A DNA stretch of 64,000 nt from Roseibacillus sp. (GCA_965242925.1 CBDEUM010000014.1:320001-384000), one strand, 5' to 3'. Numbered from the stretch's first letter, positions 171 through 7,049 are shown. The notes: generated by a model from the sequence alone, not told the origin. Program-made: numbers and translations.

Positions 171-1290
171 ATGCCAGAACCTTCATTCAGCGACGACCTC
201 CAGGCGCTCGACACCACGGCCCTCAAGGGCCGCTTGTCGGAACTCCGGAGGTATCTTTGACGTCCCTGAACTGGAGAAGAACATCGCTACCATCGAAAAG
301 AAGATGGAGTCCCCGGACTTCTGGAACGACCAGAACGCCGCCCAGTCGACGGTCAGGGAGGCCAGCCGGCTCAAGGGCAAACTCCACCCCTTCCTCAGGC
401 TCGAGGAACGCCTCCAGAACGTGGAGGCCGGGATCGAACTGGCGCGCGAATTCAATGATGCCGACTCGGCCCAGGAGGCCTCCGACGAATTCAAGACCCT
501 CACCCGCGACATCGATTCCTTTGAGCTGGTAACCCTCCTCGACAAGCCGACCGATCTCAACAATGCCTACCTGTCCATCCAGGCGGGGGCCGGCGGCACG
601 GAGGCTTTCGACTGGGCCCAGATGCTTCAGCGCATGTACATGCGCTGGGCGGAGAGCAGGGGATTCAAGGTGTCCGTCACGGACGAGCAGGAGGGGGAAG
701 GTGCGGGCATCTCCAGCGCCTCCCTCAAGATTGAGGGAGAGTATGCCTACGGCTACCTGAAGAACGAACGCGGGGTGCATCGCCTGGTGCGCATTTCTCC
801 CTTCGATGCAGCCGGCAAGCGTCACACTTCATTCGTCGCAATCGACTGCACACCGGAGATCTCCAAGGACATCAATATCGAGATTCCCGAGGGCGACGTC
901 GAAGTGCAAACCACCCGCTCCGGCGGAAAAGGCGGCCAGAATGTCAACAAGGTGGAAACGGCGGTCATCCTGAAACACAGTCCCTCCGGCATCCTCATCC
1001 GTTGCACGCAGGAGCGCTCCCAGCTGCGCAACCGCGAACTGGCCTGGGAACTTCTCAAGGCCAAGCTCTACCAGATTGAGGAGGACAAGCAGAAGGCAGA
1101 GGCGGACCGAACCTACGGCGAGAAGGGCGAAATCGGATTCGGCAGCCAGATCCGCTCCTACGTCTTCCAGCCCTATCAGATGGTCAAGGATCTCCGTACG
1201 GGCCATGAAACAGGGAATATCCAGGCCGTCATGGACGGGGACCTCGATGGCTTCATCGAGGCCAAGCTGCGCGGTCAGGAGAGATCCTGA
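171..1290 (+). CDS. prfB: Peptide chain release factor 2, expressed via programmed +1 frameshift
   Basis: ATG at 171 opens [29 protein letters not shown] ending at CTT-TGA-C (255-261). The +1 frame continues DVPELEK... with the SPF anticodon-mimic motif (RISPFD) and GGQ (GGKGGQNVN). Confidence 0.97.
246..261 (+). other. prfB programmed +1 ribosomal frameshift site
   Basis: CGGAGGTATCTTTGAC: internal SD-like GGAGG, 3-nt spacer, slippery CTT TGA C; canonical RF2 autoregulatory cassette. Confidence 0.96.
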
Positions 1291-1345: not shown

Positions 1346-2101
1346 ATGAAACGATTCTGGTGCTTCCTGCTGGCCCTCGTCTGCCCCGCCCTTGCAGACG
1401 TGGAATGGCGCAGCTTTGAAAACGCGGACAAGACCAGGTCCTTCCAGGGGCGTCTGGTCGGCTACGATCCCGCCCGGAAAAAGGTCACCGTGCAGAAGAA
1501 ATCAACCCTGCGCCCGGTCACCTTCAGCGTGGCCCTGCTTTCCGAGGAGCACCGCAAGTTCGTGGAAAAGCGCGCCGTAGAACTGGAAGCAGCTGGCGGC
1601 CTGCGCATGATGTTTTACCAGACGATCGAGAAAACCGGGAGCAACCGCAGCGGTGACACCCGCACCAGCAGTTACAACGGTGGCTATAAGATCGAAATCC
1701 GGAACTTCCTTCGTCGTGCCATCCAGGATGTCTCGGTCGACTATATCGTGATTTACCGCAAGGACTCGACCAAGGGTAATGGGACAAGGAGCGTTAAGAG
1801 AGGATCTAGGGACCTCACCGCCCTGGTGCCCAACTACGACGAGAACATCGTCATCGATGGCATCCCACTCACCAGCTACTACAAAGCTGGCTCGGTCTCG
1901 GTAACGGGGGCGGCGGGATCGACATGATGTCGCGGTGGTGGTGGCGCGGTCAGCGCCACGAGGTCACAGCGAAGCCGCGACTCCCTGGTCGGTTGCATTG
2001 CCCAGATTAAAGTGGGTGGCAAGGTGGTGAAGACCGAGGCGTCGAGCGCTGATGTGCTCCGCCAGTACAGCGGCGCCTTTGGATCATCTGACGCCCGGTA
2101 A
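1346..2101 (+). CDS. Exported SHD1-like domain protein; candidate selenoprotein (in-frame TGA at 1925-1927), 251 aa if read through, 193 aa if not
   Basis: Signal peptide MKRFWCFLLALVCPALA. N-terminal domain WRSFENADKTRSFQGRLVG...VALLSEEHRKFVE resembles SHD1. After the TGA the frame stays open for 57 codons to TAA at 2099-2101, and a hairpin follows the TGA. Confidence 0.72.
1928..1981 (+). promoter_or_regulatory. Candidate bacterial SECIS element
   Basis: Upper stem GTGGCGC(1941-1947)/GCGCCAC(1953-1959) with loop GGTCA starting 20 nt after the TGA. Lower stem GTCGCGG(1929-1935)/CCGCGAC(1975-1981). Confidence 0.62.
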
Positions 2102-2181: not shown

Positions 2182-3561
2182 CTAGCGAAAGGAAACGTCC
2201 TGGCCGACGGCAACCAGCTTGCCCCAGAGTTGCTGGGGAGATTCGCCCGGAGCGGTCATGACGAAATGGGGGGCATATTCCCGTCCCAACCCCAATTCCT
2301 CGACGAAATCGCGAAAAAGGTCCCGGAGCGCATCGCGCACAACAGGATCGGAGTTGGCCGGCAGAAGAAAGAGCACAGATCGGCGACCTTCCTCGTGGGA
2401 GTTGCTGAGAAGCGTCCTGTGAGGGAGTAGCTCCAAGAGGTCGCGGAATGACTCGGCGGAATCCACTCCGTCGTCAAAGTCGAAGGGAACGCGCACCAGG
2501 GTGGAGGGAGCCGCGTACTTGGTGTGGGTTGTCACCGCCGCTTCCATGGCAGCATAGAATTCATACTGGTCGATGGAGCGGTGGCGGGCCTCGTCATGAA
2601 GCGGCGGGGCTGGGGACCCGATCCTTCGATCGCAGACTGACTTCATCATCTCAAAGGACCCCGGCTGGAGGTTGTTGAAAGGCACATCCTGCACGATCAG
2701 GACGTGGGTTGTTGCCCTGTCGGCACCGTTGGTGATGGGATACGCTGCAAGATACCCGGACCTGCGTGAAGGGGGATTTTGCAGAAGGGTCTTCTGGACC
2801 AGAAAGCAGTTCCGGGCCAGGGACTCCGCCACGATCTGGTGATCATCCCGCAGCAGGTGCTCCGGGAAGTGCGCGGAGTCCCCCAGGGAGGCAACCCGCA
2901 CAAGAGCTGCAGCCCGGGACTCCAGAGGCACCTCGTAAAGTGCCGCACTGCCTGCGTGAGTGATCCGGGCCAGAGCCGCGAGAAGATCTGACGGGACGAA
3001 ATCGCTACAGGTTTCCACCGCCTCTCCCAGGTCCTCCTCCAGTTGTTCCTCCAGAGAATCCGCCTCGGCGCCATGGAATTCGAGCCTTTGCTGGAGATCC
3101 TGCCGGGAAAGCACGAGCAACTCCTTCTCGGCGTGCACCCGGCGGTTCTCTCTCCTGAGCTCTTCACCCTCTTTTTCCAACTGCAATCCACACCGCTGCA
3201 GGCCCTCCGAAACCTGGCCCAGGAGAACCCCGAGGAGAGGGAAGGAGATCAGAGTGTAGCGATGCTCCGTGAGAGTGATCCCCTGGCCTGCCACATACCT
3301 TCCCACCACCAGGAGCAGAACAGTGAGTAGCCCGGCGCTGAGCCCGGCGCTGAATCCGTAACGAACACCGAGGAGCACAGGGATGAGAAGAAAGGGAGTC
3401 GGATTGACGCCAAACCAACCGGCATCTCCGGGAACGATCACGTAGTTCACCAAGGCCAGCAGCGCGAAGAACGCAACGAAGCGGAGAAGAAAGAACCGAA
3501 CAGGATATGGCCCGGGACAAGACACGGAGCCATGGACAAAGGGCAGGGTCTGGGCAGACAT
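2182..3561 (-). CDS. PelD-like membrane protein (TM bundle, coiled coil, GAF-like domain, degenerate GGDEF-like C-terminus)
   Basis: PFLLIPVLLGVRYGFSAGLSAGLL resembles the PelD membrane segment, followed by a coiled coil, a GAF-like region and C-terminal EEGRRSVLFLLP. Start could be the TTG at 3579. Confidence 0.6.
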   Translation of the reverse strand: MSAQTLPFVHGSVSCPGPYPVRFFLLRFVAFFALLALVNYVIVPGDAGWFGVNPTPFLLIPVLLGVRYGFSAGLSAGLLTVLLLVVGRYVAGQGITLTEHRYTLISFPLLGVLLGQVSEGLQRCGLQLEKEGEELRRENRRVHAEKELLVLSRQDLQQRLEFHGAEADSLEEQLEEDLGEAVETCSDFVPSDLLAALARITHAGSAALYEVPLESRAAALVRVASLGDSAHFPEHLLRDDHQIVAESLARNCFLVQKTLLQNPPSRRSGYLAAYPITNGADRATTHVLIVQDVPFNNLQPGSFEMMKSVCDRRIGSPAPPLHDEARHRSIDQYEFYAAMEAAVTTHTKYAAPSTLVRVPFDFDDGVDSAESFRDLLELLPHRTLLSNSHEEGRRSVLFLLPANSDPVVRDALRDLFRDFVEELGLGREYAPHFVMTAPGESPQQLWGKLVAVGQDVSFR

Positions 3562-3840
3562 GGGGGAGGCAGAGGGCAAGGGTGTGGCAGCGCAATGCTT
3601 GCAGTGGCACTGCGGACAAGGTCCTTCAGATAACCGGACTACCTCAGTGTCGCCAAAAGGAAATTTAGAAATGAATTTAAGCGATGATGATATTCATGGT
3701 AATTCTTCCTGTCTCAGTTAAACGAAATTCTCCTGATATCTAATCATCTCAAATTAAATACGGGATCCCTAGTAGGATCCCTTTATCAGCGAAAACAGGG
3801 AGAATGGGGCCCAGTTGTTGATCTCATCCATCCTGCGGAT

Positions 3841-3967: not shown

Positions 3968-6955
3968 TCACTGCCGCGAACCCGGAACCACTTCCAGGAT
4001 GACCTTCTTCCCTTTGCGCAGCACGGTGATTTTCACTTTCTCTCCCACCTTGAGGGACTCCAGCAGGTAGGTGTAGTCGTAGATATTCTTCACTTCCTTG
4101 CCCGACACGTTGACCACCACGTCACCGGCTTCGATGCCGGCCTTGTCGGCCGGACCGCCCTTGGTGGCACCCGAGAGTTTGACCCCCACAATATCACCCT
4201 GGGAATAGTCGGGAACGGTTCCCAGATAGGCCCGCAAGTTGGCCCGTCGCCCCTGCCCTTCAGGGCGTTCCACCTTGACGTAATCGGGCTCCTCACCAGC
4301 GGCGGCCAGACCGCGGGCCACCAGGGCCATGAAACGCGTGACGCGCTCGGTCCCGGGGTAATTGATCTTGTCAGCAGTATCTCTGGGCGTGTGGTAATCA
4401 TCGTGAGCACCAGTGAAGGCGTTCAGAATCGGCACTTCGCGCAGGTAGAAGGATGTCGCATCCGTGGGCAGATAGGCATCGCTCTGCGTCTTGATGGACA
4501 ATCCGACAGGGACGTTGCGCTGTTCGATGATCCCAGGCCAGATTGAACTGGATCCCGTCCCCTGGAGGACGAGGGATTTGTCGAGACGACCCACCATGTC
4601 CATATTGAGATTAGCCGCAAAAATCCCATTGAGCTTGGCGTTTTCATCGCCCTTCAACTTCCGGGCAACCTCCTTGACGAAATGGGAAGAACCGATCAAT
4701 CCGATTTCCTCCCCGGACCAGGCCGCAAAGAGGACATCTCGCTTGAGCTTGAGTTTCCCGGCCTTCTGCTGAGAAGAGAGATACTGGGCGATCTCCAGCA
4801 AACCCGCCACCCCCGAGGCGTTATCATCCGCACCAAAATGAATTTCCTGCGCCTCTTTTCCGGTGGCTCGCGAGCCACCGCCATGGGTCCCCAGATGATC
4901 GACATGTGCCCCGAGAATAAGCGCCGGCCGCCTCTGGGCTTCCGGGTCCGCGGCGACCAGCCGTCCCACCACATTACGGCCGGTTCGCTTCTGTTGGACA
5001 ATGTCAATCCGGGCCCCGAGAGCGGCCTTGGGAATCTTCAGGCCCATCATCATCTCTCCCTTGTCGAGAATGGTCTGGATCTCCTTGAGATTCTTGCCGG
5101 TTGCCGCAACCAATTTCTCGCCGATCTCCTTGCGCACCGAGAGTGCCGCGATACCGGAGTCCGCCATTGATGCATCATAGCTCAGTCTCACCAACTCCTC
5201 CCGCACCTTCGAATTCGGGCCGGCCACGAAGATGATTCCCCGGGCGCCCTTCTGGCGGGCCGTCATAGCCTTGTAGCGCATACTTGAGTAACGGGCAAAC
5301 TGGCGGCGGCGCTCTGCGCTCACGTTTTCAGGTATGAAGCGGAGAGCCAGCACCCACTTGTCCTTTACCGCCAGATGGTAATAGCTGGAGTACATCTTCG
5401 TCTTGGAGCCATCGGCATCCACCTGCCCTTCTGGGATCTCAATCCCGTATCCGGCGAAAACGATTTCCTCGGCCTTGATCTCTCCCAGCTGGGAAAAGGA
5501 AAGCGGACGCCAGTCCTCGTCTACCTTGAGGTCCAGTTCTTCATCCCCCGTCTTCAGGACGAGCGTGTTCCCCTTGCCGAGATCCATCCCCGCCGTGAAC
5601 TCGAAGGGGTGAAAGTAGTTGTCGCCCAGAAAGGGTTTCAACCCGAACTCTTCGAAGGCTCGTGCCACGTAGGCGGTCGCCTTGCGCTCCCCCGGCGTGC
5701 CCGTCATCCGGCCCTCCAGTTCAGGGCCCGCCAGGTACTCGATATGGTGACGAAGGTCCCCCTGGTCAACCTTGGAAGTCGTGGCTGCCAACCCCGCAAG
5801 AGCCTTGGTGGAAAGTTCCACCTTGGGGTCCTCCTTGCCTTGAGGGGGCGTTCCCCGGACAGGCGCGGCGGCAAGAAGTTCGAGGGCAGCGCTGTGATTC
5901 CAGTCCGCCAGAAAAATCTGTGAACCCTTCTTGCCCGTCCGTTTGCTGGTCCAGGACAGGCGCTTCCCATCAGGGGAAAATGCAGGCAACCCGTCGAATC
6001 CGTCCGTCCAGGTCACCCGCACCGGTTCCCTGGCCCCAGCCGCGTCAACCAGGTAGAGCTCAAAGTTGGCGAAACCGTTCAGATTCGTTGCGAAGATAAG
6101 ATACTCACCACTCGAGTGGAAGTAGGGCGCCCACGACATCGCGTCCAGGGCAGTGAGCTGTTTCTCGTTACTCCCGTCGACATTCATGGTCCAGATCTCG
6201 GCCTGATCCCCTTCCCGGTTGAAACGCCGCCAACAGATCTTCGATCCATCCGCATTGAAGAACGCCCCGCCATCGTAACCGGGCTCCGACGTCAGCTGTT
6301 TCACATTGGAGCCATCCGCATCCATGATGAAGAGGTCCATCAGGAAGGAAGGATTGAGCTTGAACCACTCCCGGTCCTTTGCGCTGAGCCTGTCGGCATC
6401 GGAGTAGCCCAGACGGTTGGATCCAAAGACCACCTTACGCCCATCCGGTGAGTAGGCCCCCTCCGCATCGTAGCCTGGCGTTCTGGTCAGGTTACGGGAT
6501 TTCTTCGTCTCCAGATCATACTCGTAGATGTCGAAGAAGGCATCGTAGTCCCAGGAATAACGCTTCTCCTTGCCCTCCGCCCGACGCTTCAACGCTTCCT
6601 CCTGTTTTTTCCTCGCATCGGGATCGCTGTGAGTGGAGGCGAACATGACCTTCTTCCCCCCGGGGTGAATCCAGGCACACGTCGTCTTGCCATGGCCGGG
6701 AGAGATGCGCTCGGTATCGCCGGTCTCCAGATCAATCAGGTAGATCTGGAAAAACGGATTATCCTTCTCCCGTTCACTCTGGAAAATCATCTTGCTCCCA
6801 TCCGCACTGAAATAGCCCTCCCCGGCCCGCTTGCCCGCGAAGGTGAGCTGCCGGGTGGAGGAGAGAAGGCGCGCTTCATTTTCTGCCGCCTCGTCCGCAA
6901 GGGCAGCCACAGGCACACTCAAGGCGAGGGAAATCAGGAGATAAACAGTTCTCAT
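3968..6955 (-). CDS. Exported M28-family peptidase with TolB-like (PD40) propeller, PA and PDZ domains
   Basis: Signal peptide from ATG 6955; repeated (F/Y)SPDG motifs; GAHVDH, GADDNASG, SGEE, NMDMVGR and DYHTPRD zinc-peptidase motifs; C-terminal PDZ (YLGTVPDY...GPADKAGI). Confidence 0.92.
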   Translation of the reverse strand: MRTVYLLISLALSVPVAALADEAAENEARLLSSTRQLTFAGKRAGEGYFSADGSKMIFQSEREKDNPFFQIYLIDLETGDTERISPGHGKTTCAWIHPGGKKVMFASTHSDPDARKKQEEALKRRAEGKEKRYSWDYDAFFDIYEYDLETKKSRNLTRTPGYDAEGAYSPDGRKVVFGSNRLGYSDADRLSAKDREWFKLNPSFLMDLFIMDADGSNVKQLTSEPGYDGGAFFNADGSKICWRRFNREGDQAEIWTMNVDGSNEKQLTALDAMSWAPYFHSSGEYLIFATNLNGFANFELYLVDAAGAREPVRVTWTDGFDGLPAFSPDGKRLSWTSKRTGKKGSQIFLADWNHSAALELLAAAPVRGTPPQGKEDPKVELSTKALAGLAATTSKVDQGDLRHHIEYLAGPELEGRMTGTPGERKATAYVARAFEEFGLKPFLGDNYFHPFEFTAGMDLGKGNTLVLKTGDEELDLKVDEDWRPLSFSQLGEIKAEEIVFAGYGIEIPEGQVDADGSKTKMYSSYYHLAVKDKWVLALRFIPENVSAERRRQFARYSSMRYKAMTARQKGARGIIFVAGPNSKVREELVRLSYDASMADSGIAALSVRKEIGEKLVAATGKNLKEIQTILDKGEMMMGLKIPKAALGARIDIVQQKRTGRNVVGRLVAADPEAQRRPALILGAHVDHLGTHGGGSRATGKEAQEIHFGADDNASGVAGLLEIAQYLSSQQKAGKLKLKRDVLFAAWSGEEIGLIGSSHFVKEVARKLKGDENAKLNGIFAANLNMDMVGRLDKSLVLQGTGSSSIWPGIIEQRNVPVGLSIKTQSDAYLPTDATSFYLREVPILNAFTGAHDDYHTPRDTADKINYPGTERVTRFMALVARGLAAAGEEPDYVKVERPEGQGRRANLRAYLGTVPDYSQGDIVGVKLSGATKGGPADKAGIEAGDVVVNVSGKEVKNIYDYTYLLESLKVGEKVKITVLRKGKKVILEVVPGSRQ

Positions 6956-7049
6956 GTGTGAAATCCTAATAGAATCAGGCCTCCTATACGTCAATCGTAT
7001 GCTCGGAATTGCTTTTCGTTTCAAAATTCCTCACTGAGAGGCGCTCACC

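Follow-up and report, generated by a model that had tools for sequence, protein, structure and literature searches.

A probable exported selenoprotein of Roseibacillus sp. with SHD1-like and Ig-like domains and a conserved GGUC-loop hairpin behind its in-frame UGA

Does a TGA codon end a gene, or does it lie within one? This question is raised by a 64,000-nucleotide stretch of Roseibacillus sp. DNA (GCA_965242925.1 CBDEUM010000014.1:320001-384000; hereafter the window), in which a frame starting at ATG 1346 encodes 193 amino acids (C terminus ...GAAGST) up to TGA 1925-1927 and then continues for 57 more in-frame codons (1928-2098) before reaching TAA 2099-2101. The codon directly 3' of the TGA is TGT, encoding Cys (1928-1930). 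An earlier reading made from the nucleotide sequence (hereafter the sequence-only reading) had proposed a new exported selenoprotein at this place, and re-reading of the window confirmed the 193-aa open reading frame (ORF), the position of the TGA, the 57-codon extension, the Cys next to the TGA, and the 7-bp stem with a GGTCA loop 20 nt downstream on which the proposal had been built. Our analysis indicates that positions 1346-2101 almost certainly form a single selenoprotein gene, with the TGA inside the gene and not at its end. Selenocysteine (Sec) is very likely inserted at UGA 1925-1927, and we hold with high confidence that this is a real Sec-decoded gene whose product combines a signal peptide with SHD1-like and immunoglobulin (Ig)-like domains. 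The features on which the argument draws, including a putative Sec insertion sequence (SECIS), are as follows:

1346..2101, plus strand: proposed full coding sequence of the selenoprotein (251 codons and a TAA stop), in which UGA 1925-1927 would encode Sec; the basis is full-length homology across the TGA.
1346..1396, plus strand: predicted signal peptide (MKRFWCFLLALVCPALA, cleavage before DVEW), recognized by eye from a basic n-region, a hydrophobic core, and A-x-A.
1400..1582, plus strand: predicted SHD1-like (SH3-like) beta-barrel and helical linker, residues 19-79, from a VIA-align match to 2hbp.
1598..2050, plus strand: predicted Ig-like beta-sandwich, residues ~85-235, spanning the UGA, from an AlphaFold (AF2) model with CsgC 2y2y_A as its best match.
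1925..1927, plus strand: candidate UGA Sec codon (U194) in a Gly/Ser/Thr-rich loop, with TGA in the same column across loci and Cys aligned to it in five stop-free homologs.
1928..1930, plus strand: Cys195, vicinal to the proposed Sec (U-C motif), TGT in 16 of 17 close-group orthologs.
1941..1959, plus strand: putative bacterial SECIS (bSECIS) upper stem-loop, with a 7-bp stem and the apical loop GGUCA (1948-1952), from covariation and fit to the bSECIS model.
1929..1981, plus strand: outer 7-bp stem around the hairpin, GTCGCGG (1929-1935) with CCGCGAC (1975-1981), window-specific and present in the minimum free energy (MFE) fold.

The ORF extension and the hairpin in the window alone do not exceed chance. 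In this genome of 60% GC, 39.5% of the 1846 long TGA-terminated frames stay open for at least 57 codons past their stop, and folding of a 66-nt segment gave a z score of only -0.99, 33 of 200 shuffled sequences folding as well. The significance of the locus therefore rests entirely on comparison with other genomes. With post-stop open frames of this length so common, and with gene callers annotating the 193-residue form, the TGA might be taken for a true stop, and the frame past it for the decaying rest of a gene, a small ORF in its own right, or an error in the assembly; the comparative data bear on each of these.

A protein search with the read-through product returned 79 relatives. About 70 of them are 191 to 194 aa long, cover 77% of the query, and end in ...GST, in keeping with the truncation by gene callers that the sequence-only reading had foreseen; NCBI names the truncated forms "hypothetical protein." Two distant relatives, P0079 (250 aa) and P0080 (245 aa), are stop-free, cover 90 to 95% of the read-through product, and align up to its C terminus, including RSQRSRDxLVGCIAQ[IV]K, with a Cys adjoining the U column. 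At the DNA level, all seven related genome loci (Roseibacillus and Akkermansiaceae-type metagenome-assembled genomes; 71 to 93% identity) have their TGA at this codon and share the frame downstream of it. When 401 genomes of the bacterial family to which the window belongs were searched in six frames, 109 gave matches; by hand count of the matches listed, an in-frame TGA is present in about 71 of 89 near-full-length matches and absent from 18, with 44 more matches unlisted. The TGA stands at the loop column in 26 of the 31 genes of 30 loci (L026-L055), including a paralog group at only ~30% identity, while the other five have Cys (three genes) or neither (two genes). Furthermore, it lies in the same Gly-rich loop in 39 of 40 additional loci, that of L064 falling just beyond the aligned part; these loci were pre-selected for an in-frame TGA, so that this count tests position and not frequency. 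Homologs around the TGA column keep the TGA or, in stop-free forms, have Cys, the outcome that the sequence-only reading had named as support; none carries Trp, Arg, or Gly there, and none ends there at the DNA level.

The frame past the TGA bears its own mark of selection. Over codon columns 206-245, the residue is identical in all 17 close orthologs at 22 of 40 columns, with 2 to 5 synonymous codons in use, and fixed residues with varying codons indicate that the protein is under purifying selection. A 23-sequence alignment (A4) has seven invariant columns, of which three (D212, L214, and G216) follow the TGA, and the region past the TGA is, as judged from these alignments, the most conserved part of the family, the downstream conservation that the sequence-only reading called for being clearly present. 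The earliest in-frame start-type codon past the TGA is a GTG at codon 223, deep in this conserved region, which argues against a separate small ORF. As for a sequencing error at 1925-1927, contigs from three RNA-library runs span the TGA (1844-2200, 1825-1975, and 1896-2039), a 7.9-kb contig from a DNA-type run of another study covers the whole stretch in question, and none of these four runs differs at 1925-1959. The RNA-library data, being contigs, show presence and not transcript structure; the independent run contigs agree with the TGA. A codon fixed across dozens of species and independent runs, followed by a part that is under purifying selection and that completes a beta-sandwich in our structural model (see below), does not behave as the end of a 193-residue protein. 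The true-stop reading is already contradicted by the comparative data, and we regard it as scarcely credible.

If the TGA lies within the gene, the next question is how it is decoded. In the window, GTGGCGC (1941-1947) pairs perfectly with GCGCCAC (1953-1959) over 7 bp, and the GGTCA loop starts 20 nt after the A of the TGA. This upper stem-loop is invariant in eight close orthologs, and a hairpin is found in 37 of 37 distinct sequences, its loop starting 20 to 27 nt from the U of the UGA (17 to 24 nt after the UGA). The apical loops read GGUC(N), with a few GGUU or AGUU. With the loop constant, the stems vary, from GUGGCGC/GCGCCAC and GAGGUGC/GCACCUC to CCUGGC/GCCGGG, CCUGAC/GUCAGG, CCUGCC/GGCGGG, CCCUAC/GUGGGG, and GCGGC/GCCGC. 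Paired cells make up 92.9% of the set with 4-nt loops (20 sequences) and 96.6% of the set with 5-nt loops (17 sequences), fractions biased upward by the choice of hairpins for best pairing near a [GA]GT[CT] motif; a slid partner gives 26 to 61%. Double-change cells number 18 and 30, respectively, with double changes in 4 of 7 and 6 of 7 pairs, and the covariation score was reached by none of 500 shuffles in the gap-free alignments of either loop set. Despite this selection bias, the controls (slid and shuffled) and the constant distance speak for real pairing, and the conserved hairpin with a covarying stem that the sequence-only reading had anticipated is borne out for the inner hairpin. The second 7-bp stem of that reading exists in the window but is absent from the consensus structure of eight orthologs and variable in further orthologs; it is probably not essential.

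The conserved element appears to be read as RNA. Indeed, GGUC stands in different codon phases (GCG-GUC-AGC in the window, GGC-GGU-CGC or UAC-GGU-CUG elsewhere), and the peptides encoded over it differ by subfamily (GGAVSAT, PGGRR, and PYGLWG), so that the constraint acts on the RNA. Moreover, synonymous diversity has its minimum at codons 193-207 (0.26 to 0.31 versus a mean of 0.52), which rank first of 179 seven-codon windows. The bSECIS model, as set out in a 2026 review of the prokaryotic selenoproteome, specifies a loop of 3 to 9 nt, a stem of 4 to 16 bp, a G in loop position 1 or 2, a spacing of 16 to 37 nt, and an MFE of ≤ -7.5 kcal/mol (PMC13188914). All 37 distinct hairpins satisfy the constraints given there, the MFE limit included (PMC13188914), and the window hairpin has a 5-nt loop, 7 bp, a 20-nt spacing, and an MFE of -15.0 kcal/mol. 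An Rfam scan of 1800-2200 with E values up to 10 gave no SECIS family and two chance-level matches only. We conclude that the recoding mechanism is classical, of the SelB/bSECIS type: SelB with Sec-tRNA(Sec) would bind the GGUCA-loop hairpin at 1941-1959, and Sec would be delivered at UGA 1925-1927 in competition with release factor 2 (RF2).

Such a mechanism calls attention to the decoding machinery of the genome, and the sequence-only reading had pointed to selA, selB, selC, and selD as genes to look for. The last three are there and selA was not found in the assembly. A tRNA-Sec gene (selC, anticodon tca) is present, selB scores 287.5 bits against a cut-off of 242, and selD scores 366.6 bits. 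The selD gene (C14:573853-574776, locus L001, outside the window), itself a selenoprotein gene, has an in-frame TGA of its own (...SSCAG-U-ASKLGQ...), followed ~33 nt on by the stem-loop CGCGCA-GGUC-CUGCGCG, whose loop shares the GGUC motif of our family.

Reassignment of UGA to Trp is reported for some Verrucomicrobiota (PMC13462651). In this genome, long frames end in TGA more often than in any other stop (1846 of 3432). In addition, prfB (171-1290, plus strand), which encodes RF2 with its PCRF and RF-1 domains and lies directly upstream of the selenoprotein gene, holds a canonical CTT TGA C programmed +1 frameshift site: the frame from ATG 171 reads ...GRYL and then TGA (TAT CTT TGA C, near 250-260), and the +1 frame runs on to 1290. 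TGA as the main stop and the frameshift site of RF2 together mean that this organism uses UGA as an ordinary stop, which rules out its reassignment across the genome, for example to Trp.

Several points weigh against Sec decoding at this particular UGA. To the unremarkable local fold and the upward bias in the pairing fractions, both given above, we add that selA was not found with the PF03841 and TIGR00474 profiles in this 89.9%-complete assembly. This last point would also suit a UGA read through outside the Sec pathway, by near-cognate Trp, Cys, or Arg decoding or by a suppressor, with the hairpin acting as a pause or read-through stimulator. However, the hairpin fits the SelB-type consensus (PMC13188914) and, a few AGUU loops apart, has an invariant GGU in the loop, and in selD of this genome, too, the TGA is followed by a similar stem-loop with GGUC. 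At the UGA column, the alternative to Sec is specifically Cys, and tRNA-Sec, selB, and selD are all present. Since the assembly is 89.9% complete and 18 of 19 genomes from the rest of the genus carry selA, the one other genome without it being 70% complete, the missing selA is probably an assembly gap. Read-through without the Sec pathway is thus quite improbable in our view, and we proceed with Sec as the residue inserted at UGA 1925-1927.

What protein would Sec decoding yield? The product would be a 251-residue precursor, giving an exported protein of ~234 residues after cleavage of the signal peptide, whose site appears by eye as ASA, AVA, or AMA before E or D in orthologs. An AF2 model built from the 23-sequence alignment (mean predicted local distance difference test [pLDDT] score of 84.5; predicted template modeling score of 0.70; residues 1-17 with a pLDDT of <50) orders the chain as a small barrel (strands at 22-61), two helices (67-85), a beta-sandwich (86-232), and a helix (235-245). 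The strands past the UGA fall at 201-232, and the 10-residue blocks over 201-240 have mean pLDDT values of 86 to 96, consistent with the suggestion of the sequence-only reading that the extension supplies the missing end of the preceding beta domain. According to this model, the 193-residue product would be without four sandwich strands; these last four strands and the C-terminal helix would be encoded past the UGA, and Sec194-Cys195 would sit on a flexible Gly/Ser-rich loop between strands. The block holding the Sec (191-200) has a mean pLDDT of 53.

Comparison of the model with 48,161 chains by VIA-align gave CsgC (2y2y_A) as the best match of the sandwich (residues ~85-235; Z 9.2; root mean square deviation [rmsd], 3.4; 95/95 residues; 12% identity), with Z values of 8 to 9 also for many Ig-like domains of GH2 enzymes and transglutaminases. 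A Foldseek search against the PDB told less than VIA-align, giving only weak Ig-like matches (TM 0.2 to 0.35). Residues 19-79 match Sla1 Homology Domain 1 (2hbp; Z 8.1; rmsd, 2.0; 58/66 residues; 19% identity). The label "SHD1-like" given by the sequence-only reading thus holds at the level of structure but not at that of the Pfam threshold: SHD1 (PF03983) gave no match for the window protein and a sub-threshold match in 1 of the 23 alignment members (E 0.043), and RimP SH3 matched below threshold in 10 of the 23. A Protein Atlas search with the Cys homolog P0080 returned only unnamed Verrucomicrobiota clusters, of which a neighbor cluster has SHD1 on 15% of its members. As modeled, a signal peptide is followed by an SHD1-like barrel and then by an Ig-like sandwich, on whose flexible Gly-rich loop the Sec-Cys pair sits.

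The composition of that loop across the family frames the question of function. In the U column of the 23-sequence alignment, Sec occurs 16 times, Cys 5 times, and neither twice. Loop motifs across loci include GST-U-C, GGG-U-C, GGG-U-GG[AG]P-C, and, once, GG-U-U; the GGGUC form of U-C recurs in many distant subfamilies, Ser takes the place of the vicinal Cys (U-S) in L020 and L027, and in another subfamily the Cys lies five residues past the Sec (U-x4-C). The vicinal Sec-Cys pair on a flexible loop proposed by the sequence-only reading therefore stands for the window and many members, but the U-S and U-x4-C forms show that it is not universal. In the same Gly-rich loop, stop-free full-length representatives either lack Cys or have CxxC, Cx4C, or CxxCxxC. 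At one locus (L044, G016:C99:179218-182931), tandem stop-free paralogs, one with CxxC (AGCSTC) and one without either Cys, adjoin a DDE transposase. At another (L084, 667-688; G145:C107), two adjacent in-frame TGA codons (...RAGG-U-U-GAPG...) precede the usual GGUC hairpin, and this member would, from its sequence, carry a vicinal Sec-Sec pair.

In silico data support the recoding signal, the existence of the family, the correspondence of Sec and Cys, and the fold; the chemistry is inferred. nDsbD is an Ig-fold redox domain related to CsgC. In the manner of such Ig-fold periplasmic redox proteins (nDsbD/CsgC type), the selenol and the neighboring or nearby Cys might cycle between the selenol/thiol and selenenylsulfide states on the mobile loop of an extracytoplasmic Ig-fold carrier, with the SHD1-like domain as a possible docking module. 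The exported Ig fold, the paired Cys in the mobile loop of the Cys forms, and the solution of the best structural match in an oxidized form are the grounds for suggesting an extracytoplasmic redox role, which we put forward, tentatively, as the most likely one. Three observations tell against it: some Sec forms have no partner Cys (U-S in L020 and L027; UGGGPV in L052, L055, L062, and L063), Ig-fold matches at Z 8 to 9 are common and indicate no function, and the 38 ORFs that flank the gene at 15 loci show no conserved neighborhood and point to no pathway.

The same selenoprotein could instead bind soft metals or metalloids (Cu(I), Hg(II), Zn, As, Se, or Te) outside the cytoplasm, as a chaperone, scavenger, or sensor. 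The vicinal CU and UC pairs in Table 1 of the selenoproteome review are mostly metal handling, with CopZ-type GxUC and CU, MerB-like SaoL, HgcA, and MbdU among them (PMC13188914). The CxxC, Cx4C, and CxxCxxC motifs of the Cys forms in Gly-rich loops and the two adjacent Sec residues proposed for L084 would also agree with metal binding. Against this, no recurrent metal-transport or metal-resistance genes lie beside the 15 scanned loci, no known metal-binding domain was detected in the Pfam and NCBIfam scans, and some members have a single Sec only. We consider a metal-binding role the main rival, possible but less likely, and extracytoplasmic redox chemistry remains our working proposal.

The gene neighborhood adds little to the choice between them. 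The selenoprotein gene starts 56 nt past the prfB stop on the same strand, and prfB is also upstream in L031, L032, L040, and the distant paralog locus L055 of another genus; among the flanking ORFs scanned, no other neighbor is recurrent. A UGA-recoded gene behind the gene for a UGA-specific release factor makes a curious pairing. Downstream in the window, a convergent 465-aa ORF (2182-3579, minus strand) has hydrophobic N-terminal segments and no Pfam match; an ORF at the corresponding place in L040 matches PelG, an exopolysaccharide exporter (E 7e-17). Further on, a 1018-aa exported protein (3968-7024, minus strand) combines PD40 beta-propeller repeats, peptidase M28, and a C-terminal PDZ domain.

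How large is the family, and has it been described? A profile search of 1.84 billion representatives returned 1294 proteins at E ≤ 0.001 and 313 at E ≤ 1e-10. Among the best 150 representatives at 50% identity, 54 are ~174 to 205 aa long and match only to profile position 171-196; of these, 53 sequences were inspected, and nearly all have Gly-rich tails (...SGGG, ...GGGGG, or ...C-x-GG-T), which would fit truncation at the Sec codon. In 400 genomes sampled across the phylum, matches at E ≤ 1e-10 occurred in 17 besides the window's own, with an in-frame TGA in none, and Sec forms seem to occur mainly in the bacterial family of the window itself. Repeats in giant proteins also match the N-terminal-domain part of the profile, 16 in P0101 (4278 aa) and 11 in P0197 (995 aa), the latter being CarboxypepD_reg-like domains by Pfam; these matches are probably spurious or very distant.

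The window protein matched no Pfam and no NCBIfam (release 20) family at E values up to 1, and a Pfam scan of the 23 alignment members matched no catalogued selenoprotein family. Table 1 of the review lists 119 families or subfamilies, nearly all with a domain identifier (Pfam, NCBIfam/TIGR, PTHR, or cd) (PMC13188914). None of the families in that table fits, those with only a cd or PTHR identifier being compared by their table entries (PMC13188914). The GOS_A, GOS_B, and "MucD" families of the GOS supplement (file 4) were judged unrelated by eye; the GOS supplements contain none of the motifs GSTUC, GGGUC, and GGUCG, and have GGGUG only in SelD. By title and abstract, no described selenoprotein family of this kind was found in the literature, where the family might still be listed under another name. 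The statement of the sequence-only reading that it recognized no described family agrees with these results, as far as Pfam, NCBIfam, and the 119-family table reach (PMC13188914), and the family appears, from its sequences, to be undescribed and sizeable. On balance, we favor the view that the window gene is the first example of a large Verrucomicrobiota family of exported Ig-fold selenoproteins missing from the catalogues, in which an SHD1-like domain precedes a poly-glycine loop with (G)n-U-C or U-x4-C and in which, within the window's own bacterial family, Sec forms outnumber Cys forms.

If so, a redox or metal-handling function outside the cytoplasm would be indicated, one that depends on selenium and in which Cys is no easy substitute. 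A predominance of Sec over Cys forms is the opposite of what holds for most selenoprotein families, and its extent in the home clade (about 71 of 89 near-full-length matches listed) suggests that marine Verrucomicrobiota truly need selenium in their envelope or exterior. The bacterial selenoproteins known so far are mostly enzymes with a thioredoxin fold or a metal center; an exported SHD1-like plus Ig-fold protein with Sec on a poly-Gly loop would be a different scaffold. The recoding mechanism is a textbook one, and reports of new selenoprotein families appear regularly. In practical terms, databases would hold dozens to hundreds of proteins cut at the UGA, whose annotation a family model would repair, and the uniform GGUC-loop SECIS with its covarying stem could serve as a clean training set for SECIS models in the phylum.

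Among known systems, the closest in mechanism is E. coli fdhF, whose SECIS loop also reads GGUC. Decoding of the fdhF type by SelB and a bSECIS likewise has an in-frame UGA followed by an intragenic stem-loop, whose small apical loop opens with G and then G or U, 16 to 37 nt on (PMC13188914). The gene is a different one, however, and the lower stem is not conserved in the family studied here. Sec adjoining or near Cys, as in our family, is also seen in the CopZ-type (2Fe-2S)-binding GxUC/CU proteins (cd10141) and in DUF1573 with UGC (PF07610). DUF1573 is, moreover, an Ig-like domain of PVC and Bacteroidota bacteria; none of the 23 alignment members matches PF07610 or another catalogued model at E values up to 1. 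The combination of an SHD1-like and an Ig-like domain with a poly-Gly loop sets the family apart from the Sec/Cys families of Table 1, where it is absent (PMC13188914).

In fold, the sandwich resembles E. coli CsgC (2y2y), a periplasmic Ig-like sandwich whose entry title says "oxidised form," but at 12% identity, and many unrelated Ig domains reach comparable scores (Z 8 to 9). Residues 19-79 share the fold of SHD1 (PF03983; 2hbp) and differ in falling below its Pfam threshold; the eukaryotic SHD1 ligand is an endocytic motif, which has no obvious bacterial counterpart. Finally, the Sec-Cys loop may be set beside the tail of mammalian thioredoxin reductase by analogy only: here, the order U-C is reversed, the pair lies in an internal loop instead of a C-terminal tail, and fold and kingdom are unrelated, while the Gly-Cys-Sec-Gly tail of the mammalian enzyme also holds an adjacent Cys and Sec in a flexible, Gly-flanked segment and can form a selenenylsulfide.

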